Virus record (IMG/VR): IMGVR_UViG_3300034356_002097
Coordinates: 1-36,783 of that record
Length of the DNA stretch: 36,783 bases
DNA from: a virus
Lineage: Duplodnaviria > Caudoviricetes
Reading direction: 5' to 3' (one strand)
Shown here: one piece after another, positions 13,568-32,335 of the stretch
Layout of the letters: each line of letters begins with the position of its first letter
Numbering within the stretch: the first letter of the stretch is position 1
Position numbers and translations under genes: made by a program
Notes under the pieces: model-generated
Told to the model about the DNA's origin: nothing
Databases searched by the model: none
Seen by the model: the letters and a program-made list of their open reading frames with translations, nothing else

Positions 13568-14830
13568 GTGATGGGATTGTTAGACGCTTTCGGCTCCTCG
13601 TCATTCTGGACGGAGGACGTACCTAACTCGGCTAAAGGCTTGCTGTCGTTTAAGCCCGATACCCGCAATGTGTTAACCCGTGTGCTGATGGAATACGCTA
13701 AAGATACGCCCAACCGTGTGCGCGAGAATATCGCCACTAACTTCCCCGACCCTAATCTACTAACCCCGCAGGGCATGAAAACGCCGCAGGGACAACAAGC
13801 GAGAAACGCCCTTGCCGATGTGCTAATGGGATTTGCGGGAACGACTACGCCCGTTAGAGGGCTGATGGCCAGAATAACCAAGGAATTGCCTGTTGGGATG
13901 AGTATTAAAAGCATCGACGAATTAGCAGCAAAATATCCAGATGTGAAAATTGATGCTTTTGTTACTAAAGACGATTTAAATTTAAGTCGGATTGTTGTCC
14001 CAAAAGAGATGAGAAACCAAGGACTTGGGACTCAAGTTATGAATGATTTATCTGAATATGCAGATAACATTGGGAAAAGAATAACGCTAACACCGTCAAG
14101 TGATTTTGGTGGAAATGTCAAAAGGTTAAAAGAATTTTATAAAGACTTTGGATTTGTTGAAAACAAAGGAAAGAATAAGGATTTTTCTATTAGCGAAACA
14201 ATGTATAGGGAGCCAAAGCCTCAAGCCATGATTCCGCAAGGACAACAAGCGAGAAACGCCCTTGCTGATGTGATGATGGGAGTTGCGGGGACTACTAAAC
14301 CGATAAAAGCGGCGGGGGGATTGCTTGGCGATCTTAATCAATTTAGGCAAGTGGATATGTTTGGCAATGGCTCAAGAGTGCAATATTTTGACGATGCCAA
14401 AAACTTGTACTACGAAAGTCAAAAATACCCATCGGGTCGCGTGGGGTGGAAAGCTGGTGAGGTTGTGGACGGAAACACTAACTGGCTTTCTGATAAAGAA
14501 TTTTCCTCTATGGCAGAAGCGGCAGCCTCGGTTCGCGGACAAAGAATTTCCAATAGCCTGAACGAAAGAAATGCGTCGCTATACGGAGATATACCTAAAT
14601 TATGGGATGCAGACGCCAAGAAAGTGGCAAAGGGCCTAATTGACGCGGGAGTTCCGATAGAGAGGTTCTCTCAGTCTACGCAATCCCCGTCCAAATACAT
14701 TTATCTTCAAGACGGCAGAAAGGTTCGCGTTTCTAATCACGACTTGCCATTAGGGTATGAGCAGCCAGACTACAACTTTATGTCTGGCGAAAACGTTGCG
14801 AACTTTGTAAAAAAGATAACCGCCCCATAA
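13568..14830 (+). CDS. Multi-domain putative injected protein with GNAT acetyltransferase domain
   Basis: SRIVVPKEMRNQGLGTQVM acetyl-CoA loop and LKEFYKDFGF; second domain with S.SKY..KVRVSNH; lies in ejection module. Confidence 0.7.
   Translation: MMGLLDAFGSSSFWTEDVPNSAKGLLSFKPDTRNVLTRVLMEYAKDTPNRVRENIATNFPDPNLLTPQGMKTPQGQQARNALADVLMGFAGTTTPVRGLMARITKELPVGMSIKSIDELAAKYPDVKIDAFVTKDDLNLSRIVVPKEMRNQGLGTQVMNDLSEYADNIGKRITLTPSSDFGGNVKRLKEFYKDFGFVENKGKNKDFSISETMYREPKPQAMIPQGQQARNALADVMMGVAGTTKPIKAAGGLLGDLNQFRQVDMFGNGSRVQYFDDAKNLYYESQKYPSGRVGWKAGEVVDGNTNWLSDKEFSSMAEAAASVRGQRISNSLNERNASLYGDIPKLWDADAKKVAKGLIDAGVPIERFSQSTQSPSKYIYLQDGRKVRVSNHDLPLGYEQPDYNFMSGENVANFVKKITAP
13784..14300 (+). repeat. Imperfect ~67-bp direct repeats (13784-13850, 14234-14300) flanking the GNAT domain
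   Basis: PQGQQARNALADVLMGFAGTT versus PQGQQARNALADVMMGVAGTT. Confidence 0.9.
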
Positions 14831-16308: not shown

Positions 16309-17920
16309 GTCATTTTCTTATGAGGAAGCATTTGCCCCGACGGGTACAAGTAAATCATTCTCGTATGAGGATGCTTTGGGGGACGCAAAGCCTACTCCGG
16401 CTAAGATTGGTCGTGAGGGGTTTAAGGACATTCTCAAAAAAGAGTTAGCGGACGCTAACCCGTTCACTCGTAACATCGCAGGTGCGGGTACGGCTCTTTC
16501 CAATCTCTACGAGGGCGCAAAACAATTTGTAGGCGCTGGCGATCAGAGCCGCATTGAGGAAAACAAGATTATTGAACAAGCGGCTCCCGTTGGCGCGTTC
16601 CTCGGTAACGCTGCGCTTGCTGCCGTTCCCTTTGCTGCTGTTGGCAATAGCCTAAAAGCGGCTGGTGCGGTGGGTGCTGGATTTGGTGCGCTAAACCCAG
16701 TCGAAGGCGAACAGACGCTAGGCAACATCGTACAAGGCAAGCTGCAAAACGCGGCTATTGGCGGTGCGCTCGGTGCGGGCGGTCAAGCATTAGCGAACAA
16801 GGCGGGCAACTACTTTGCTGGCAAGATTGCAAACCGGGCAGATGAGGCAGTAAGGAACGCCCCGATTGATAAGACATTGCAAGACGCAATTGACGTGGGG
16901 CTAGTCGTTCCTCTATCCGCTGCAAAGCCTACGCGGTTCAATAACCTACTGGATAGCATTGGTGGCAAAGCACTAACCTCGCAAGAGTTTTCCAACAAGA
17001 ACGCCGGAATTATTGACGCGCTCGCCCGGAAGTCAGTAGGGCTTGGCGAGAATGTGCCTTTGACTGGTGACGCTATGCGCTCGGTACGTCAAGCGGCTTT
17101 TGACCGTGGTTATAAACCGTTGCAGGAAATTGGTGATGTTCCGGTAGATACCGCATACGCTTCTGCGCTTGATAAGATTGCAGCCAAATACACTGGCCCT
17201 GCAAAATCATTCCCTGGCGCAATTGATTCTGAAGTTCCGGCGCTGGCTGAGTCTTTCAAAGTGGCAAACTTTGACGCGGGCGAAGGCTTGCAAGCCATTC
17301 AATTTTTGCGAGACAAAGCAAGCGAAGCGTTCCGCAAGGGTGATGCCTCAGTCGGCAAAGCTAGTAAGGAAATTGCCAACGCACTGGAGGATCAATTAGA
17401 ACGCCGATTAGAGTCCGCAGGGCAAAATGGCGCTGTGCTGTTAAAACAGTTCCGTGACGCCCGTAAGTTGATGGCTAAAGCGCACACGGTAGAAGATGCG
17501 ATTGTAGAAGGCGGCGGTTCGATCAACGCTAAAAAACTCGGCAGCATCGCGCAGAGCAAACTCGGCAGACTGTCCGATGAGTTGGCAATAATTGGTAACT
17601 TTGCCAACAACTTCCCAAGTGCTGTAAAACCCGCACAACAGATTCAGGGGCCTGGCGTGAGTGCGCTCAATTTCCTGTCCGGTGGTGGCTTTGGTGCTGT
17701 CGGCGGGATGGCTGGCGGGCCTGTTGGTGCGGCTTTGGGTGTGGCTGCGCCGTTCGTTGTTCGCCCTATGGCTCGTTCGTTGGCAATGTCACGCGGTATG
17801 CAAAACGCACTAGCCCAACGGAGGCTAGGACTGTCTGCGCCGGAGGCGAGCGTTAACGCACTCGCTCGCTATCTTCCCGTTGGCGGCACTGTATTGGGAC
17901 TTGACACGTTCGGCCAATAG
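16304..17920 (+). CDS. Putative ejection protein (gp16-like position)
   Basis: Ala/Gly-rich hydrophobic segments at both ends, helical middle; coupled TAATG. Confidence 0.65.
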   Translation: MASFSYEEAFAPTGTSKSFSYEDALGDAKPTPAKIGREGFKDILKKELADANPFTRNIAGAGTALSNLYEGAKQFVGAGDQSRIEENKIIEQAAPVGAFLGNAALAAVPFAAVGNSLKAAGAVGAGFGALNPVEGEQTLGNIVQGKLQNAAIGGALGAGGQALANKAGNYFAGKIANRADEAVRNAPIDKTLQDAIDVGLVVPLSAAKPTRFNNLLDSIGGKALTSQEFSNKNAGIIDALARKSVGLGENVPLTGDAMRSVRQAAFDRGYKPLQEIGDVPVDTAYASALDKIAAKYTGPAKSFPGAIDSEVPALAESFKVANFDAGEGLQAIQFLRDKASEAFRKGDASVGKASKEIANALEDQLERRLESAGQNGAVLLKQFRDARKLMAKAHTVEDAIVEGGGSINAKKLGSIAQSKLGRLSDELAIIGNFANNFPSAVKPAQQIQGPGVSALNFLSGGGFGAVGGMAGGPVGAALGVAAPFVVRPMARSLAMSRGMQNALAQRRLGLSAPEASVNALARYLPVGGTVLGLDTFGQ

Positions 17921-18040
17921 CTGACGTTTGAACCACGAATCGGGCATATATCGGGCTATTGCTAGGCGAGTGGCTAGACCGATTACACCGAAAAGAATGA
18001 ACGCAAATAGCGGCCCGAAAAAGATTCCCCAGTAACTCAT
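17825..18040 (-). CDS. Small antisense membrane protein
   Basis: N-terminal TM helix then basic tail; occupies the 17921-18051 gap. Confidence 0.55.
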   Translation of the reverse strand: MSYWGIFFGPLFAFILFGVIGLATRLAIARYMPDSWFKRQLLAERVKSQYSAANGKIASECVNARLRRRQS

Positions 18041-20919: not shown

Positions 20920-21075
20920 GACGCCTCCCGCATGATTGAAATTAAAACTACCGGACTGGCGTCACGGTGGCAGACGGTCATCGCGCCATCGTTTATAGCG
21001 ATGGAACAAAAATTGTTCGCGTGACGGCTGATGTATAGTTATAATTGTTTGAGTTTTTTTTAATAGGGGACACGC

Positions 21076-21336
21076 ATGGACGGATTTTATTTAATTGCAG
21101 TTTTGCTAATCACGATCATTATTTTGGCGGTGATTTTTTTTGCTGATCGCGAAGACAAAAAAACTACGCTTAAAGGTGGGCCGGGCGAGGGCCCCGGCGG
21201 GCACCCGTTGAGCGGTCGTCAAACTGACATTACTCCCGGTGGCCCCGGCGAGGGGCCCGGCGGCCATCCGTTGAGCGGTCGTCAAACTAACATTACTCGC
21301 GGCGGCCCGGGCGAAGGCCCCGGCGGGCACCCTTGA
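21076..21336 (+). CDS. Membrane-anchored/secreted peptide precursor with 3 x GGPGEGPGGHP
   Basis: AGGGG RBS; about 20-aa hydrophobic N-terminus; 63-bp repeats at 21175-21333 with only synonymous changes in the core. Confidence 0.8.
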   Translation: MDGFYLIAVLLITIIILAVIFFADREDKKTTLKGGPGEGPGGHPLSGRQTDITPGGPGEGPGGHPLSGRQTNITRGGPGEGPGGHP

Positions 21337-21728
21337 AAAGTGTCGCAGCCGCGCTTGCTATAGGCGCGGTTTTTTTTAATTTTTCAGCGGAATGGGCGCT
21401 GCCAGGATTCAGCCCGTATGCAACTTGGTACATCCAGCAGAGCATTTGGGTAGCCATTTTGTGTGTGGTGGTGCGTTTGCTTATTGACTCATACCCGCGA
21501 TCCGCCGTGTGGGCGCTCGCGGCGACGGCGTGCTTTGTAGGCGCGTCTGAGGGGTTACAAAACGCGACATGCAGGCTGCTTGTCAACAATAGCAGCAGCA
21601 TACCGCGTGGCACGACCGTATGCGATTATGTGACCGGACTACCCATGCAGGCGACGTCGGTCACGCTGTACCTATTATTCTTTTTGTGGAGCGTCTACAA
21701 ATGCAGACCGAGCCGCAGGATTTTATAA
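21333..21728 (+). CDS. Multi-pass (about 4 TM) membrane protein with a Cys-containing loop
   Basis: TTG start overlapping TGA of the peptide gene; four hydrophobic stretches. Confidence 0.7.
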   Translation: MKSVAAALAIGAVFFNFSAEWALPGFSPYATWYIQQSIWVAILCVVVRLLIDSYPRSAVWALAATACFVGASEGLQNATCRLLVNNSSSIPRGTTVCDYVTGLPMQATSVTLYLLFFLWSVYKCRPSRRIL

Positions 21729-22087
21729 CCGTCGTCGTTGCCATATTGGCGCTGGTGACGAGTAAGGAACTGGCCGGGCTTGTCGGCCCATACGCCGGGA
21801 TCGCGGCCTGCGCGTGCGCTGGCGCAGCCGTCTCTCTGTCCGGCAATGACGAGTCGATGACGGTGCCTCAGGCGCTTGGCTATGTGTTGTTGCGCGTCTT
21901 GCTCGCGACCATCCTCACGGTAGGACTCGCCGAGCTATTGCAGCACGTCATGCCGGCCATTAAACCGCGCTATTCGCTCATTCCGCTGGCGTTCGGTATC
22001 GGTTGGATTCGGGACTACTCTAGCCTGCGTTCGTGGCTCGGCGACACCATACAAACCATAATCTCACGCCGGGTGGATCGACCATGA
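21701..22087 (+). CDS. Putative holin
   Basis: GGAG RBS and ATG 21701; multiple TM segments, charged C-terminus; lysis position. Confidence 0.6.
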   Translation: MQTEPQDFITVVVAILALVTSKELAGLVGPYAGIAACACAGAAVSLSGNDESMTVPQALGYVLLRVLLATILTVGLAELLQHVMPAIKPRYSLIPLAFGIGWIRDYSSLRSWLGDTIQTIISRRVDRP

Positions 22088-22380
22088 CTCAGGAGCTGCT
22101 CACTGCGGTCAATTTTTTTATATGCTCCCTCGGCGGATTTTGTTGTATTTGCCGCTTGCGAATTATGGGCACGTCAACAAAAAAACCAATCCGATTTCAA
22201 TACGCGATATGGTTTGCGGTGTTTTTTTATTCGGCCTTTAGTTGGACGTATGGCGACCACCCAACCGGGATCCAAATCGTGCTAGGCGCTGCTGTGCTCG
22301 CGCATATTTTGCTTGGGTTTAGCGCGTGGCGCGACGGCCTGCCCAAGTATGCAAAAAAAGAGGAGTTGAAATGGAATTAG
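22084..22380 (+). CDS. Putative second holin/antiholin (3 TM)
   Basis: ATGA coupling; three hydrophobic segments, basic tail; precedes endolysin. Confidence 0.55.
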   Translation: MTQELLTAVNFFICSLGGFCCICRLRIMGTSTKKPIRFQYAIWFAVFFYSAFSWTYGDHPTGIQIVLGAAVLAHILLGFSAWRDGLPKYAKKEELKWN

Positions 22381-22829
22381 AATTAAGACGCCGCTCGTCA
22401 TCGGAGACCTGCACCGTCGGAGAGTTGTTTGTAGACGGGCATTTTGAGTGCTACATACTAGAGGACGTGGTGCGAGAGATTGAGGGCGTTTCGGTCGCCG
22501 ATTGGAAAACGCACGGCGCGACGGCCATACCTGTAGGCACCTATCAAATCACCCTCACACAGTCCCCGCGTTTTAAGCGCGTTTTGCCATTGCTCAATCG
22601 CGTCCCCGGTTTTAGTGGCGTCCGCATCCACCCGGGCAACGATGCCGATGACACCGAGGGGTGTTTGCTGCCTGGCTTGACCGTTGACGACGACGGCGAG
22701 GGTGTTGCGTATTCTCGCGCTGCGTTTGATCGATTGTTTGACAAACTCACGCGGGCGGACGCGATAGGTCAACCGATTTTTATCACAATCGAAAACAGTT
22801 CCACGACCGACGACGAGGCTGTCGCGTGA
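22371..22829 (+). CDS. DUF5675-like putative endolysin (L,D-transpeptidase-like fold)
   Basis: T.GEL..CYILED, TAIP.G.Y, GVRIHPGN..DTEGCLLPG; GAGGAG RBS; between holins and spanins. Confidence 0.75.
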   Translation: MELELRRRSSSETCTVGELFVDGHFECYILEDVVREIEGVSVADWKTHGATAIPVGTYQITLTQSPRFKRVLPLLNRVPGFSGVRIHPGNDADDTEGCLLPGLTVDDDGEGVAYSRAAFDRLFDKLTRADAIGQPIFITIENSSTTDDEAVA

Positions 22830-23395
22830 TCTCCGCGCTCCGCATGTGGCTCGATGTTGTGCTGCCGTTTTGGCGCATCGCTGCGGCATTGGCCGCCGTC
22901 GCCGCGCTCGCTGGTGCGGTGTGGTGGGTGCGCGATACTGGAGTGCAGGCAGAGCGCGCCCGCTGGCAAATTAAAATGAGCAAATCAGACGCGCACTGGC
23001 AGGCTCAATTAGACGCTGCCAATGCGTCAAACCGCTCGAGCGAGCGGCGCAGCGCCCAAGCAATTGCAAACGTGTCAACCAATTATCAACGCGAGATTAA
23101 AAATGTCGATGAGAAAAAAAATTATGATCGTAGCAGTGTGCGGCGCGGCAGCCTCCGGCTGTTCGACCGTCCCGATGACGCCACTGAGCAAAACGATTGT
23201 CGAGCGCTGTCCGCAACCAGTGACCCTACCGCCTCCACCCTCGGACGTGATGGTAGAGAGGCAACCGAACTTTCGCGAGCGACTGCTGAAAATCTTTTTG
23301 ACCTCGTCAACGACGCCGACGCCGTCGTCGCACAACTGGCAGCCGCGCAGTCCGTGATTTTGGAATATCAAAAATTATGTGGCTCCGGCTTGTGA
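22826..23395 (+). CDS. Rz: i-spanin (Rz-like)
   Basis: N-terminal TM, coiled coil, VRRGSLRL, DADAVVAQL..Q. Confidence 0.8.
   Translation: MISALRMWLDVVLPFWRIAAALAAVAALAGAVWWVRDTGVQAERARWQIKMSKSDAHWQAQLDAANASNRSSERRSAQAIANVSTNYQREIKNVDEKKNYDRSSVRRGSLRLFDRPDDATEQNDCRALSATSDPTASTLGRDGREATELSRATAENLFDLVNDADAVVAQLAAAQSVILEYQKLCGSGL
23109..23357 (+). CDS. Rz1: o-spanin lipoprotein (Rz1-like) embedded in Rz
   Basis: +1 frame; MRKKIMIVAVCGAAASGC lipobox; Pro-rich mature part. Confidence 0.75.
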   Translation: MRKKIMIVAVCGAAASGCSTVPMTPLSKTIVERCPQPVTLPPPPSDVMVERQPNFRERLLKIFLTSSTTPTPSSHNWQPRSP

Positions 23396-23862: not shown

Positions 23863-24096
23863 TCATATCCCCCACACGCGCTCTGCCGAATATTTCAGCT
23901 TTGGGTGCGCTCTGCGCCCATCTTCCGGCCTGTTCCCTGCGCGAATATAGACGCCCTTTGATAAGCGTTTAAGGCATCCGTCCTGCGTCATTAGGCATAG
24001 GTTTTTCTTCAAATCTCGGTACTCCATCAAGTGTTTAAGGTCGGCCATCTCGGTGCGGTGTTCGCACGCGTCCCAAATTTGTTGCGCGTAGGTCAT
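23863..24096 (-). CDS. Small hypothetical protein, possible winged helix
   Basis: L..MTQDG.LKRLSKGVY pattern; ATGA coupling. Confidence 0.55.
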   Translation of the reverse strand: MTYAQQIWDACEHRTEMADLKHLMEYRDLKKNLCLMTQDGCLKRLSKGVYIRAGNRPEDGRRAHPKLKYSAERVWGI

Positions 24097-25727
24097 GCGG
24101 CTTGGTCGCCGCTGATTGATTCAATAAATGCAAAAACTTCCTTTAGCTGCGGGAGCGATAGAGTTTGTAATTCGCTGTTGATCGCTGCAACTAGACGCTC
24201 TCGCGCACCCGGCATCGGCGGCGCTACGGTCGTAACCGGCACCACCGCGGCAACTGTCGTAATCGGTGCCACTGGCGTTACCAGTGGCACAACCATCGGC
24301 TCCGGCGCTTTTGCTTGTGCCTCGGCTTGGGCTTTGACTTCGGCAGCGATCCGCGTACGCTCGGCTTCGTCGGCCAGTCGTTTCGCTTCGGCTGCGATCT
24401 TCGCGGCTTGCTCCTGCTGGTGTTTGGAAATGCGCGATCCGATGACGGCGATTAGGTCGTCATTCGCTTTCAACACCAAGTCTTTGATGTCACCGGCAAA
24501 CAGCGTTTGATATCCGTCCGCCAACTCTTTGAGCGTGAGTAGGTTCTTCTCGATGCGGTTGGCAATCCTGTCAGCTTCGATCTTCGCCCTGGCGACTTCA
24601 TCATTCACGGCGCTGTTCATGCTGTCCAAGTTCCGCTTGGCCTTGGTGACGCCGGCAAAGTCGGTATTGATCTGCGGCATGTACGGCTTGCCGATACGCG
24701 CCTCAAGTGCTGCGATGTGTGCGGCGACTTCACGCGGTCCACGGTCGCGGATTTCTTGCTTGATCTGCGATTCCTTGGCCGTCACCAACCGGTCCAGCGT
24801 GAGGCGCTTCTGGCGTACCTGTTCCTTTACGTGGTCGACCGCGCGCATGATTTCGTCAACGCTTGTCATCTGGCTCAACACCATCTTCCTGGTGAGTTCC
24901 AGCTGGTCCTCGGCTTCCTGGCAAAACTTGACCATGCCTTTGGCGTTCGCAAAATCCTCGTCGGTCTTTAGGTCGGTGTTGATGCTGTCGATCAGGGCGA
25001 AGGCGCTTTCCTGGTAAACAACCAGGTTCGAGGCTTCGACCTTGCCGAACACTTCAACGACCAGCGCCGGCAGTTTCTTGATGGGCTCGGCCACAACTTC
25101 GACCGCTGGCGCGGCGGGTTTGTATGCGGCGACGTCTTTGAGAAACTGTTTCCAGCCAGCGACCAATTCGGCGAAACGCTCGGGGCTTGATTCGTACCAG
25201 GTGTGAAACGCCGTGTCCTCGGTGCCGTTGGACGCCATGAACAGAATGCGATTCGCACCCGTGACGAGTAGCTGCTGGTCTAGCTGCCAGCGATGCGAGA
25301 CGGGCACTTCTCCGGCCGCAAATGACGCGCGAAGGTCTTTGTTCAGGCTCTTGTGTTCCCAGCCGGTTTCTTCGCCCATCGTCAGCCCGTCCTGCGATGC
25401 TGATAGCGGGAGGCTGTCCGCCTCACAGGACATCACGACGGGGTACAGGTCGTCGCCGATGATCCTCTCGGCGATGACACGCGCGCTGGCTTCGTAGTCG
25501 TGACCAGCGTCGAACAAGGATTGAAGGTGCGCGGAGACTTCTTTTGTTTCGCCGGTTGCGTATTCCGCAATGAGTTGGTCCCGCGTCTTGTAGGGCGATA
25601 CGCCCATCATCGCCGGGGCGTCGCTGGCGTTGAGTCGGCGAATGCCGTTGATGACGGCATTGCGGTAGGCGTGCCATTCAGGTGAGCCCTGAACAAGATT
25701 GTGTGTTTGTCTGTTGGTGATGTTCAA
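24093..25727 (-). CDS. YqaJ/lambda-exonuclease family recombination nuclease with long helical C-terminus
   Basis: QGSPEW..R, ASDAPAMMGVSPYKT, GHDYE, SASQDG, WEHK, WQLDQQLLV; probable TTG start 25727. Confidence 0.88.
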   Translation of the reverse strand: MNITNRQTHNLVQGSPEWHAYRNAVINGIRRLNASDAPAMMGVSPYKTRDQLIAEYATGETKEVSAHLQSLFDAGHDYEASARVIAERIIGDDLYPVVMSCEADSLPLSASQDGLTMGEETGWEHKSLNKDLRASFAAGEVPVSHRWQLDQQLLVTGANRILFMASNGTEDTAFHTWYESSPERFAELVAGWKQFLKDVAAYKPAAPAVEVVAEPIKKLPALVVEVFGKVEASNLVVYQESAFALIDSINTDLKTDEDFANAKGMVKFCQEAEDQLELTRKMVLSQMTSVDEIMRAVDHVKEQVRQKRLTLDRLVTAKESQIKQEIRDRGPREVAAHIAALEARIGKPYMPQINTDFAGVTKAKRNLDSMNSAVNDEVARAKIEADRIANRIEKNLLTLKELADGYQTLFAGDIKDLVLKANDDLIAVIGSRISKHQQEQAAKIAAEAKRLADEAERTRIAAEVKAQAEAQAKAPEPMVVPLVTPVAPITTVAAVVPVTTVAPPMPGARERLVAAINSELQTLSLPQLKEVFAFIESISGDQAA

Positions 25728-25728
25728 A

Positions 25729-26907
25729 TTAATCTCCCATTGGGTTGGCAATGTATTTCAAAACGTCATCGACCATGGATTCGAGCGTTTGCTCAATGGA
25801 TTTCACGTCGAACTTCTTGAGGATGTCGGCCTCGTTGATTGCTGCCGCTGCCGCGTGTTCTCGGATCACGGCAACCTGTTCGGTGCTGGCGACTTGGCCG
25901 ACCGGTGCCGCCAAATCGTTGATGCGTTGCTTTTGTGGTGCCGTGAGTGGTGCCTTTGTCTCGGCGGTGGTGATAATCTCGGCTGGGGTTTTATTTTTCT
26001 TCTCGATCAGCTTTGCCCAGTTGGGTAGCGCCTTATCAAAATCGGCGTCCGTCCAGGCAGGTTTGCCAGTGTCGGCGTCTTTTCGCGCGGCTTCGGCCCT
26101 GTTGTCAATGACTGATTGCCAGGTGGCTTCGCCCTGACTGATCGCGCCGTAGATGCCGCGCAGGTTTACAATCTCGGCGGGCGAGCATGTGTCGATCGAA
26201 TGGTTGAGATAAGTCGTGAGGTCGCTTGCGCGGACGCCAATCTCGCCGAATGCGTCAATGATCTTCTTGCGCTCTGCCGCTGGGTCCTTGGCGGCTTCGT
26301 CGGCGCGGATTCGCTTGATCATCGCCACGGCTTCGTCCTGGATGTCGCCGGGAATCAATCGCAGCGCGAGGGTGCGCTGGGCCTTGGAAATCAGGGCGGA
26401 CCGCTTGTTCAGCATTTCGTCCTCGGTCGCCGGTACGGTGTAGACCGCCTTGTTCCAACTGTTTTTCCGCACGCTGATGTAGCTACCATCCGAGAGTGGC
26501 TTGGACCGCTCCACCGACTTCGCAATCAAAATGTCGGAGTCGTAGGCGAGTGTGCTTTCCAAGTCCTCGACGGTGACGCGGATAATTTCTTTCTCCGAGT
26601 CCTCGAACAGTACGGCGGTGCGAACCTGAATGTTCTTCATGCAGCGCAGCGCGACTTCGGTAAACCGGATGCCAAGCCCTTCAACGCCTTCGCCAATCGG
26701 CTTGATGTAGAAGGCGCTCTTGTTGTGGGCGAATGATGGGCGCCGACACTCCATCATTACGTCTTGCCGTACTTGGTCCCAGTTGCGCGGGTTCCGTAGC
26801 GCAATGACATAGCGCGCCTCGGCCAGGGCCTTTGCTTGTGCCGACATTGCTGTTGATGCCGTTTCGGCACCGAGTGCCATTTGTTGATTTACAACGATAT
26901 CGTTCAT
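25729..26907 (-). CDS. Putative single-strand annealing protein (recombinase partner of the exonuclease)
   Basis: Directly upstream of the exonuclease; AGGA RBS, ATG 26907; family not identified. Confidence 0.55.
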   Translation of the reverse strand: MNDIVVNQQMALGAETASTAMSAQAKALAEARYVIALRNPRNWDQVRQDVMMECRRPSFAHNKSAFYIKPIGEGVEGLGIRFTEVALRCMKNIQVRTAVLFEDSEKEIIRVTVEDLESTLAYDSDILIAKSVERSKPLSDGSYISVRKNSWNKAVYTVPATEDEMLNKRSALISKAQRTLALRLIPGDIQDEAVAMIKRIRADEAAKDPAAERKKIIDAFGEIGVRASDLTTYLNHSIDTCSPAEIVNLRGIYGAISQGEATWQSVIDNRAEAARKDADTGKPAWTDADFDKALPNWAKLIEKKNKTPAEIITTAETKAPLTAPQKQRINDLAAPVGQVASTEQVAVIREHAAAAAINEADILKKFDVKSIEQTLESMVDDVLKYIANPMGD

Positions 26908-26991
26908 GTGTTTTTTCCTTGAATCTGTAATTCTTCTCGCGCCGGCGGTTGCTCGCGCCAATCCAAAAATGTCAAATCATAAGATGATTGC

Positions 26992-29468: not shown

Positions 29469-29835
29469 ACGCAACCTCACTCCGCTGGAGACGCATGAGC
29501 AAATCGCTTTTATCCAGTGGTGCCTCATGGCAGGCGCGCCCTACAACACGATTTTTGCCATACCCAACGGCGGCAAACGACATATCACCACAGCGGCGCG
29601 ACTCAGGCGCGAGGGGGTACGCCCTGGCGTCCCCGATTTGTTTTTGCCGTTTGCCGCCGGCGGAGCGCATGGGTTATTTGTTGAGCTAAAGCGCATCAAG
29701 GGCGGCTCGGCTACAAAACATCAAAAATTGTTTGAGGATGTGGTGCGTAAAAACGGTTATGCACACGTCTACGCCATGGGGTGTGAAGACGCTATTAAAA
29801 AAATAAAATTGTACGTCAACGGCGGAGCGAAATGA
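29455..29835 (+). CDS. VRR-NUC domain nuclease (possible resolvase)
   Basis: E..EQ, FAIPNGGKR, GVRPGVPDL, GLFVELK. Confidence 0.85.
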   Translation: MPSIKRNLTPLETHEQIAFIQWCLMAGAPYNTIFAIPNGGKRHITTAARLRREGVRPGVPDLFLPFAAGGAHGLFVELKRIKGGSATKHQKLFEDVVRKNGYAHVYAMGCEDAIKKIKLYVNGGAK

Positions 29836-30797
29836 CCAAAAATCTTCAAGCACCGTTTCCTTATTTCGGCGGGAAATCCAACGCGTGTGGCGTGGTTTGG
29901 CAGGCGTTGGGAGCAGTACAAAACTACGTTGAGCCGTTTGCGGGCAGCGCCGCCATGTTGCTGGGAGCCCCTGAGGGCAAACGGATTGAGACGATCAACG
30001 ATGCGGATGGATTTGTGGCCAATTTTTGGAGGGCGATCCATGCTGACCCTGAGGCAGTGGCGCGTTATGCAGACTGGCCGTGCAATGAGGTCGATTTGTT
30101 TTCGCGGCACTCTTGGCTGGTGCGGCACTCTGAGGATTTAACCAAAAAATTACACGCCGACCCAGAGTTTTTTGACGCCAAAATCGCAGGATGGTGGTGC
30201 TGGGGGGCATGCAATTGGATTGGCTCCGGTTGGTGCAGTGGCGACGGCCCTTGGGTTCTGGGAGACGACGACAGGTTTGTAAAAAGTGCTGGGCAGGGTA
30301 TCAACCGACAACTTCCGCACCTGAGTGCGGGGCAGGGCATCAACCGACAAACCGATGGCGAGCGCAGCGCCTTCATTCATTCGTGGTTTTGGGCGTTGCA
30401 CGAGCGTCTGCGCGATGTGCGCGTGGCATGTGGCGATTGGTCGCGAGTGGTCGCGGATTCGGTGACCGTCCGGCACGGCCTGACTGGTGTGTTTTTTGAC
30501 CCGCCATATTTCCGAGGCGGGATGGATTATGCGGCTGGAGGCGTTGGTACCAATTTGGCTGCAGAGGTAGGCGCATGGTGCGCGGCCAATGGCAACAACC
30601 CGATGCTGCGCATTGTGATTTGTGGCCACGCCGGGGAGCATGACGCCCTGCTGGCTCACGGCTGGACTAAGCGCAAATGGGCGGCGCGGACAGGCTATGC
30701 CACCACCGATGAGGCTGTGGCTAATAGTGCCGGCGAGACGATTTGGTGCAGTCCGCATTGTGAGCCGGAGACCAAAATTCAAAATTCACTTTTTTGA
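29832..30797 (+). CDS. DNA adenine methyltransferase (D12/Dam-like)
   Basis: PFPYFGGKS, YVEPFAGS, ETINDAD, FFDPPY. Confidence 0.88.
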   Translation: MTKNLQAPFPYFGGKSNACGVVWQALGAVQNYVEPFAGSAAMLLGAPEGKRIETINDADGFVANFWRAIHADPEAVARYADWPCNEVDLFSRHSWLVRHSEDLTKKLHADPEFFDAKIAGWWCWGACNWIGSGWCSGDGPWVLGDDDRFVKSAGQGINRQLPHLSAGQGINRQTDGERSAFIHSWFWALHERLRDVRVACGDWSRVVADSVTVRHGLTGVFFDPPYFRGGMDYAAGGVGTNLAAEVGAWCAANGNNPMLRIVICGHAGEHDALLAHGWTKRKWAARTGYATTDEAVANSAGETIWCSPHCEPETKIQNSLF

Positions 30798-30823
30798 CAA
30801 AAATTTTTCAAGAGGGCTATTTC

Positions 30824-32335
30824 ATGGACGCAGCAATGAAATTTGGTTCTGTTTGTAGCGGCATTGAAGCCGCATCAGTGGCATGGCATCCGCTCGGGTG
30901 GCAGGCCGCATGGCTGTCAGAGATTGAGCCTTTCCCCTCCGCGGTGTTGGCCCACCACTACCCCAATGTTCCCAACTTGGGCGACATGACCACACTGCCA
31001 GAGCGCATCCTATCGGGCGAGATCGAAGCCCCAGACGTGTTCTGTGGCGGCACACCCTGCCAGGCCTTTTCGGTGGCAGGACTTCGAAACTCCCTTGATG
31101 ACGCTCGGGGAAATCTTTCACTCACTTTTGTAGGTATCGCAAATGCAATTGACCATGCTCGATCTGTTCGAGGAGAGCAAGCCTCAATCGTCTTCTGGGA
31201 AAACGTGCCCGGAGTCCTCAGCACCAAAGACAATGCCTTCGGGTGCTTTTTGGCTGGAGTTGCCGGCGAAGATGGCGAGCTTGAGCCGTCAGGGGGAAAA
31301 TGGACGAACGCTGGTTATGTGTCTGGCCCCAAAAGAGCAGTCGCGTGGCGCGTCCTCGACGCCCAATATTTCGGAGTGGCCCAACGACGCCGCCGTGTGT
31401 TCGTTGTCGCAAGTGCTCGAGACGACTTCGATCCCGTCAAGGTTCTTTTTGAGCTCGACGGCGTGCGCCGGGATTCTGCGCCGAGCAGAGAAGCGCAAGA
31501 AGGCATTGCCAGAGGCGTTGGAATTGGCCCTCCTTTCAGTCGCACAAACAACGAAAGAGTAGAGGCCGAGGCGATGGTGGTGCAGCCTTATGAGGTCGGC
31601 AACTGCTTGACCGCCCGGATGCACAAGGGCATCAACAGCACATTGGATGAGGGGCAGACGCCAGTGATCAGCATTCACCCTCACTGCATAGGCCGCGCTC
31701 CAGAGGCTGGCCCACAAGGCAAAGAGTATTTGCTTGATGGGTCGGCTTATTGCATGGACGGCCGAGGGCAGCCGCAGGCGGTGGCGCAGCCAATCGCCTT
31801 CCCCCCTACGCAAGACCCGTCCAGCAGCACGGACGGCACTACGCACGGACTGGGGTGCGGGTCGGGAGGTGGACAGGCGAGTGTGGCCGTCAGTTATGGC
31901 ATCAGAACCGCCAACACGAGCAGCAACGGATGGGGCATTCAAGAAGAAGTCACGCACACACTGGACTGCGCTCAAGGTGTCGCCGTGGCGCAGCCAATTC
32001 TCGCCATGCGAGAGAGCGGCTTTGGCTGCTGGATGGAGGACGCAGTGGCTGGGACGCTTGATGCCAGCATGGGAATGAGTGGTCACGCAAACCGCCCTGC
32101 CGTGATGACCGTTCCTCGATCAATGGCCGTGCGCCGCCTCACCCCCGTGGAGTGCGAGCGACTTCAGGGATTCCCTGACAACTACACCAACATCCCCTGG
32201 CGCAGCAAGCCAGAGTCACCAGACGGCCCCCGCTACAGGGCCTTGGGCAACTCATGGGCCGTGCCCGTGGTGGCTTGGATTGGGAAGCGCATCGCAGCCG
32301 CTACGCTTCAAAACTCACTTCCCAAAATTTTTTAG
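30824..32335 (+). CDS. DNA cytosine-5 methyltransferase
   Basis: SVCSGIEA, GGTPCQAFS, WENVPG, QRRRRVF, RRLTPVECERLQGFP, GNSWAVPV. Confidence 0.92.
   Translation: MDAAMKFGSVCSGIEAASVAWHPLGWQAAWLSEIEPFPSAVLAHHYPNVPNLGDMTTLPERILSGEIEAPDVFCGGTPCQAFSVAGLRNSLDDARGNLSLTFVGIANAIDHARSVRGEQASIVFWENVPGVLSTKDNAFGCFLAGVAGEDGELEPSGGKWTNAGYVSGPKRAVAWRVLDAQYFGVAQRRRRVFVVASARDDFDPVKVLFELDGVRRDSAPSREAQEGIARGVGIGPPFSRTNNERVEAEAMVVQPYEVGNCLTARMHKGINSTLDEGQTPVISIHPHCIGRAPEAGPQGKEYLLDGSAYCMDGRGQPQAVAQPIAFPPTQDPSSSTDGTTHGLGCGSGGGQASVAVSYGIRTANTSSNGWGIQEEVTHTLDCAQGVAVAQPILAMRESGFGCWMEDAVAGTLDASMGMSGHANRPAVMTVPRSMAVRRLTPVECERLQGFPDNYTNIPWRSKPESPDGPRYRALGNSWAVPVVAWIGKRIAAATLQNSLPKIF
31143..31562 (+). CDS. Nested alternative-frame ORF, M.EcoHK31I beta-polypeptide-like arrangement
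   Basis: 139-aa frame inside the C5 MTase ending CSLSQVLET..PSRFFLS..AC.GILRRAEKR.K.LP..L..AL. Confidence 0.6.
   Translation: MQLTMLDLFEESKPQSSSGKTCPESSAPKTMPSGAFWLELPAKMASLSRQGENGRTLVMCLAPKEQSRGASSTPNISEWPNDAAVCSLSQVLETTSIPSRFFLSSTACAGILRRAEKRKKALPEALELALLSVAQTTKE

Follow-up and report, generated by a model that had tools for sequence, protein, structure and literature searches.

A Gly/Pro-rich tail peptide and a four-helix membrane protein paired at the lysis genes of uncultured phages: a candidate module for timing lysis

Described peptide and lysis signals compared with the locus

Peptide systems of the RRNPP/arbitrium and agr types are described, in the portions of the literature cited here, from Gram-positive hosts, with secreted peptides that are read by cytoplasmic or kinase receptors (PMC10075063; PMC10196373), and a phage-borne agr copy is reported for phiCDHM1 (PMC3901668). 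Lysis can also be delayed by sensing in the periplasm, through holin T and the antiholin RI in T4 (PMC11413866) and through TeaA/ArrA in ICP1 (PMC7182436). In necrosignalling, the host efflux protein AcrA, released by dead cells, acts on TolC (PMC7438516). In the main text of a 2026 review on phage communication, a term search returned none of the words 'Gram-negative', 'holin' and 'membrane' (PMC13389391).

We analysed a complete virus record with terminal repeats (36,783 nucleotides, or 36.8 kb, hereafter the window), whose head and connector genes are P22-like by family profile matches and whose nearest capsids, at 51-53%, come from uncultured spring phages. After the tail genes, and before a cassette that encodes a pair of small membrane proteins, a DUF5675 protein and two spanins of Rz type, lies an 86-aa ORF carrying three copies of a Gly/Pro-rich tag, followed by a gene for a 131-aa membrane protein. 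Spanins indicate a Gram-negative host, and because they are present in this cassette the window's host is implied to be of Gram-negative type, probably a Gram-negative bacterium. No tyrosine integrase or resolvase was found in the complete record.

As in arbitrium AimP/AimR, a small peptide gene adjoins its partner, the core is C-terminal and it has been duplicated within the gene (PMC10075063, as far as the cited account extends). From the same account, a propeptide of 10-100 aa (86 aa here) and adjacency of the genes (28/30 contigs, see below) are found in the module, whereas a Sec-secreted propeptide and a 250-500-aa TPR receptor, which make up two of the five criteria as we grouped them, have no counterpart (PMC10075063). 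Unlike AimR, which is a 250-500-aa cytoplasmic TPR protein, the partner is a 131-aa membrane protein with no TPR match. Arbitrium differs further in that our module sits in a Gram-negative-type lysis cassette, in a window with no integrase and no evident lysis-lysogeny switch. The likeness to AgrD/AgrB lies in a membrane-seeking N-terminal helix and a charged tail on a small peptide encoded beside a small membrane protein; however, in the cited account the agr peptide carries a ring-forming Cys, and its membrane enzyme has an R70/G75/H77/C84-type site and six helices, compared with four here (PMC10196373). Also unlike agr, the module has no AgrC/AgrA, its peptide gene precedes the membrane gene, and one carrier can be exchanged for another; none of the 58 four-helix members searched matched AgrB. 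On these sequence comparisons, the module is neither AimP/AimR nor AgrD/AgrB.

Closer parallels are found in the proposed function. Lysis inhibition in T4 and ICP1 resembles the way in which the module would work: a regulator in the membrane, next to the holin or acting on it, reads an external cue in the periplasm and alters the time of lysis. The cue described in the cited texts is, however, a superinfecting phage, with no phage-made peptide ligand, whereas the module encodes a portable tag (PMC11413866; PMC7182436). Necrosignalling likewise relies on a molecule that comes from dying cells only and is read at the envelope of living neighbours; as described there the signal is a host efflux protein, whereas here a short tag and its partner would both be phage-encoded (PMC7438516). 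By analogy, the module most likely works like lysis inhibition combined with a dead-cell signal, while apparently belonging to neither. The four-helix protein gave no PHROG, Pfam, PDB or BFVD match, although absence from a list of folds would leave room for a kinship with RI/ArrA-type antiholins.

A cultured and testable analogue is provided by Cellulophaga phage phi10:1 (KC821618), in which a tail gene is followed by a Pro-rich-tailed ORF (gp096) overlapping a small membrane protein (gp097) and then a holin-like gene; the same layout (gp096-gp098, L229:48884-49948) is also present in phi19:1 and Nekkels. gp097, for which the record describes no function, has a weak fold match to the four-helix protein (Foldseek E 1.4, TM 0.58), and the tail motif is different; with an hhalign probability of 0.6% we treat it as an analogue and not as a homologue. 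Our literature searches, which covered few subscription journals and no supplements, returned no description of the pair and 0 papers containing GGGPGEE. The module is real, widespread in uncultured phages and undescribed as far as the literature was searched.

The tag, its carriers and their linkage to the membrane gene

All features of the locus lie on the + strand. The tag-carrier ORF (21076..21336) is preceded by a Shine-Dalgarno-like AGGGGA (21065..21070) 5' of its ATG and by the -10-like hexamer TATAAT (21040..21045); the hexamer noted in the initial annotation is present, but the promoter scan paired no -35 with it and listed no + strand promoter there. A single run examined for expression covered 142 bases and is uninformative on it. 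The ORF encodes a membrane anchor (residues 6-22, 21091..21141), a charged linker and three exact copies of GGPGEGPGGHP (21175..21207, 21238..21270 and 21301..21333), the last of which reaches the stop. With no K/R before the anchor and four in the next 12 residues, the predicted orientation is N-out/C-in. The length of the ORF, its hydrophobic stretch and the number and placement of the copies were re-derived and had all been counted correctly, as had the differences between the cores, 5 for copy 1 vs 2 and 7 for copy 2 vs 3; copies 1 and 3 differ at 4 sites. Every one of these core changes is synonymous and falls on a third codon position, and the 2 sites at which the spacers differ each change an amino acid.

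The same ORF occurs in six close relatives, with two cores in five and three in one, so that copy number varies as anticipated. In the window and five of these relatives, 14 cores represent 10 DNA versions of one peptide, and all 10 variable core sites are third positions, while 8 of the 11 variable sites of the leader are first or second positions. Since the core changes only synonymously while leader and spacers change amino acids, we conclude, in agreement with the initial annotation, that the core is under selection as a peptide. What did not hold is the full 11-mer (917 Da) as the core: the motif of the wider family is GG(G)PG(E), represented in each copy of the window by its first part, GGPGE. 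An extra viral scan for the window's nearest subfamily recovered only the close relatives again.

Directly 3' of the carrier stop lies a terminator-like hairpin with a U run (21347..21371), overlooked at first and confined to the window's own clade. We considered a conserved RNA structure where carrier and partner meet and rejected it (z -0.34, with the hairpin being clade-specific). Upstream of the carrier, positions 20959-21038 retain a remnant of the 3' end of a tail gene, of which L001-L004 and L009 have the intact form. In the window and L005 a different module, common to these two, stands upstream, and they are also the two genomes with three tag copies. This arrangement suggests a swap of the tail module just 5' of the carrier gene.

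The initial annotation expected homologues of the membrane protein to have a linked peptide gene, and this proved to be the case. In distant loci fetched via the membrane protein, the upstream ORF ends in GG(G)PG(E), mostly as GGGPGEE. Counting each contig once, such an ORF is directly upstream in 28 of the 30 protein-first contigs and nearby or displaced in the other 2, compared with 1/164 when the same test is applied to other ORFs of the same loci; the pattern was composed after the data had been seen, 7 of the 30 contigs are the window and its near copies, and 6 were found via an alignment built from motif-first loci. Among fully independent distant loci, found with no input from the motif, the tag is adjacent in 16/17. 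L006-L008 and L045, where the contig ends before the upstream gene, and duplicates from one contig (e.g., L039, L029, L031-L036) had been dropped before the counts. In the reverse direction, GGGPGEE occurs in at least 121 viral loci. Among the matches listed, 30 have the motif within 12 residues of the stop and 91 of 121 have it internally or in shadow frames. The partner directly follows 14 of the 30 terminal motifs listed and is elsewhere in the contig for 2 (16/30 together); 13 have no partner in the contig and 1 was not searchable, many of these being partial contigs or shadow-frame motifs. The whole-record search left out L071, L063, L086 and L117. No partner was found in any of 31 searched internal-motif contigs (from 34 taken out of the 91 listed).

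The tag could in principle be a neutral repeat of low complexity, borne by a small membrane protein that is otherwise ordinary, as Gly/Pro runs and GC-rich codons arise readily and most listed motif matches are internal or in shadow frames. The two-way linkage already contradicts it, and together with the synonymous-only change of the core and the 22 distinct DNA strings that encode GGPGE it leaves this reading almost certainly wrong. That so many DNA strings encode GGPGE also means that the constraint does not act at the RNA or DNA level. The tag lies 2 to 11 residues from the C-terminus, at no fixed distance, and contains no Cys; neither a conserved cut site near the tag nor a conserved Arg before the motif was seen across the tagged ORFs examined. 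Among GTDB contigs, searched with one pattern, the single genome match was L046 (JBAZTM010000199.1), a 3.1-kb phage-like contig with a two-copy tag in a Gemmatimonadaceae MAG, whose bin may not reflect the host. A cultured-phage match, sought for three members of the four-helix family, was not found.

The carriers themselves are mutually unrelated and comprise membrane anchors, bare helices (31-59 residues), longer helical proteins and small beta proteins (3/37), the classes being assigned by eye. In the 33 examined their length is 31-104 aa, and one displaced carrier has 146 aa. On a tree of 37 partners the carrier has switched class no fewer than 14 times, the membrane-anchored carriers do not group as a single clade, and tandem tag copies occur beyond the window's clade in L046 and L059. 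Hydrophobic moments, for which no null was computed, are 0.5-0.9 in many carriers; the window's carrier differs in having a complete membrane anchor. The idea of an AimP-like secreted precursor was not borne out: 21 of the 33 carriers have no hydrophobic segment at all, and no Sec signal peptide was recognized among the 33 as judged by charge and hydropathy, the window lacking a basic n-region. In all 11 clear anchors K/R residues follow the helix, and in 10 of them none precede it (L042 is a twelfth, borderline anchor). Because positive charge follows the anchor helix and does not precede it, the tag is predicted to be on the cytoplasmic side; these topologies, like that of the partner, come from charge counts, not from a dedicated predictor.

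In most loci tag ORF and partner overlap by 4 nt. This overlap, with a Gly/Pro-rich tail near the stop, might suggest a nascent or arrest peptide that acts in cis and determines how the overlapping membrane gene is translated, as the RAPP/RGPP-tailed arrest peptides are described to do for downstream genes (PMC10987492; PMC12992588, in the cited portions). We consider this extremely improbable. In L022 the tag ORF is 279 nt upstream of the partner; in L171 it lies 2.3 kb downstream, behind the spanins, and in L053/L227 the distance is about 2 kb, again downstream. None of these partners has an adjacent tag. The three cases do not form one clade (single-clade hypothesis p-AU 2e-36), so the tag gene was displaced independently three times, twice to the downstream side of the partner; tandem copies, a variable distance to the stop and a motif that no conserved Arg precedes also speak against arrest. 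The displaced genes therefore argue against a cis-acting leader and show that the mutual requirement is between the products and not at the gene junction. Tag and membrane protein are very probably functional partners acting in trans.

The four-helix protein and the lysis cassette

The partner gene (21333..21728, 131 aa, TTG start) overlaps the carrier stop by 4 nt (TTGA), as had been described, and encodes a candidate receptor for which four helices are predicted (AlphaFold, pLDDT 93), in line with the some four transmembrane segments and the Cys...Cys loop read from the sequence at first. At the 50% cluster level 68 relatives were found, and a second branch, of 87 proteins, aligns with this first branch with a probability of 99%. 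Across an alignment of 142 sequences, the most conserved residues are E73 (97%; 21549-21551), C80 (96%) and R81 (92%; together 21570-21575), C97 (95%; 21621-21623), P104 (92%) and G102 (91%), followed by Y33 (86%), D98 (85%), Q76 (77%) and H16 (50%), the last of which is absent from the window's protein. Charge counts put loops 1 and 3 on the outer side of the membrane and loop 2, like the N- and C-termini, on the inner side. The conserved polar residues (H16, Y33, E73, Q76, R81, D98) sit at the outer ends of the helices, whereas the cytoplasmic loop 2 varies in length and sequence, and the protein has no cytoplasmic domain. The conserved face (E73, R81, Cys80-Cys97) is accordingly predicted to be periplasmic. 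Both cysteines are kept in 135 of the 142 sequences, both are lost in 6 and one is lost in 1; because they are lost together, C80-C97 is predicted to be a structural disulfide in the periplasm.

Sequence searches of this protein against Pfam, PHROG and PDB gave no match. Fold searches were equally empty, with no PDB Foldseek hit at E <0.001, a best BFVD hit at E 0.28 and, in VIA, generic bundles at a best Z of 7.3. Two candidate identities were rejected on shallow templates, DUF2809 (an Atlas lead, 0.88; hhalign 4.5% against 8 DUF2809 proteins) and a VanZ-like protein (hhalign 0.2% against 6 VanZ proteins). One 213-aa family member (P0013) has a carrier-like N-terminus fused to the four-helix protein and a tag that appears to be in another frame; it is probably a frameshift or a gene-call artefact.

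The protein might instead be an AgrB-like or sortase-like processing or export enzyme, which would cleave or translocate the tag and leave the mature peptide to act on a target elsewhere. A leader that may be amphipathic, with an acidic tail, does recall AgrD, as the cited account presents it (PMC10196373), E73 and R81 are near-invariant and the distance from tag to C-terminus is not fixed. The conserved residues, however, point away from a cytoplasmic substrate, no protease fold or family match was found in sequence, profile and fold searches, H16 is present in only half of the sequences and not in the window, and the tag has no Cys. AgrB-type processing, suggested in the initial annotation, is further made unlikely by the two cysteines, which are co-lost as in a disulfide and leave no unpaired conserved Cys. 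We regard an enzymatic role as improbable.

A contact between tag and partner is at present a lead only. Loss of the first Glu of the tag pairs with loss of R81 (4/5 vs 0/31), which was the best of 192 tests (family-wise P 0.0005) and a post hoc observation; a prior covariation test (EE vs other) was not significant. After phylogeny is taken into account one supported independent pair is left (sign test p 1), a single clade of the members with Glu/R81 loss is not rejected (p-AU 0.23), and L041 is an exception to the pattern. Prediction of a complex between the four-helix protein and a 32-residue tail scored 0.01 with controls that were not folded, and carries no weight either way.

The partner gene is overlapped by a gene for a holin-like membrane protein (21701..22087), which in turn is followed by a second one of 98 aa (22084..22380, no family match). 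Position and hydrophobicity of the two agree with the holins named in the initial annotation, but no Pfam or PHROG holin model was matched. Next come the DUF5675 protein (22371..22829, E 4.8e-32), which stands at the endolysin position and is a putative lytic endolysin on that ground, and the spanins, which both match Rz-type models as stated: an Rz-like inner-membrane protein (22826..23395) and an embedded Rz1-like frame (23022..23357, phrog_3198, E 1.4e-5).

Association with lysis genes, also proposed earlier, extends beyond the window. The gene after the four-helix gene encodes a membrane protein in 30/33 loci, mostly overlapping, and Pfam families of lysis type or endolysin position (endolysin, spanin-like, holin) lie close downstream in 13 loci, a tally that rests on a scan of 70 of the 108 ORFs picked. 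Several unrelated families are represented among the downstream membrane genes, none of the genes adjoining the module matches a holin model, and a universal third gene of the module was rejected because the downstream genes vary. The N-terminal half of the 21701 protein resembles a 2-helix unit of other phages (hhalign 92.5%), which occurs as a free gene of 40-50 aa, as a C-terminal fusion on the four-helix protein or as the N-half of the next holin-like protein (L022:4283-4423, L024:3651-3788, L025:4252-4398, P0024, P0029, P0034, P0041, P0048, P0054 and P0071).

How the pair may act

We tentatively favour a mechanism in which a peptide released by lysis is read on the periplasmic face of a holin-coupled receptor and times lysis. 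The tag, facing the cytoplasm on its carrier, would be set free as the infected cell bursts and might then be trimmed by general proteases, which would explain both the absence of a cut site and the indifference to the carrier. The freed tag would cross the outer membrane into the periplasm of other infected cells and bind the periplasmic face of the four-helix inner-membrane protein, which would then act directly on the neighbouring holin-like protein and shift the time of lysis. Since the tag is predicted to be cytoplasmic and the receiving face of the partner periplasmic, lysis is the simplest route by which they could meet; direct action on the holin is suggested by a partner that has no cytoplasmic domain and by the membrane gene that comes next and is sometimes fused. 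The shift would most likely be a delay, like that of lysis inhibition, and the extra tag copies of the window may raise the dose per protein.

The limit of porins is about 600 Da. GGGPGEE (601 Da) would be near this limit, and the 917-Da 11-mer of the window would be above it unless trimmed. That the tag is near-identical across distant phages counts against the proposed signal, as it would offer little kin specificity. A bolder version, which we advance a shade more guardedly, is a phage-to-phage death signal of Gram-negative hosts: a protease-resistant Gly/Pro peptide released by lysis with no export machinery, and a minimal four-helix receptor wired to the holin. As a part of this version, and with equal reserve, the inner membrane may keep the tag apart from its own receptor until death.

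The main rival, although rather unlikely in our view, is control within the same cell, with the tag binding the four-helix protein inside the producer, either to inhibit it in the manner of an antiholin or antitoxin or, after holin lesions have allowed the tag across, to trigger a feedback; cells would then exchange no signal. The upstream position of the tag gene with its 4-nt overlap, and carriers that are mostly membrane-seeking helices or anchors, fit this rival, as does a near-universal tag, and cytoplasmic antiholins exist (PMC7182436, in the part cited). The hairpin at 21347-21371 could in addition yield an excess of tag over partner, but it is limited to the window's clade; moreover, the cytoplasmic loop 2 of the partner is variable and it is the outer face that is conserved.

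A periplasm-facing sensor that adjoins tail genes in many loci, together with the few small beta proteins among the carriers, could also point to superinfection, the partner detecting tag from incoming virions or debris and shutting the envelope to further phage. Most carriers are, however, anchors or bare helices that are unlikely to be virion parts, the module occupies a late-operon position, and the window, having no integrase or resolvase, presumably has no lysogen to protect. We hold this to be decidedly improbable.

If the favoured reading is right, the module would give lytic phages a new route to gauge the number of burst neighbours and would be their first peptide communication system. 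A portable tag grafted onto any convenient gene, with a tiny membrane partner at the holin, would then be a novel design, and possibly one family among a wider class of modules that combine a tail peptide with a membrane partner at lysis cassettes. Even under same-cell control, it would be an undescribed lysis regulator with at least 150 distinct protein clusters. The module is cheap to test, consisting of a 7-11-residue peptide, a 131-residue protein and one lysis cassette.

Further genes were observed elsewhere in the window. Within the virion block, a 420-aa ORF (13568-14830) has a weak acetyltransferase match (phrog_1758), and a hydrophobic 71-aa ORF on the opposite strand (17825-18040, -), with no family match, could be a separately expressed membrane accessory gene. 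On the - strand (24093-26961), a RecE-like exonuclease lies beside a 410-aa protein of phrog_3657, and the two are likely a recombination pair. Two DNA methyltransferase genes are neighbours at 29832-32335.
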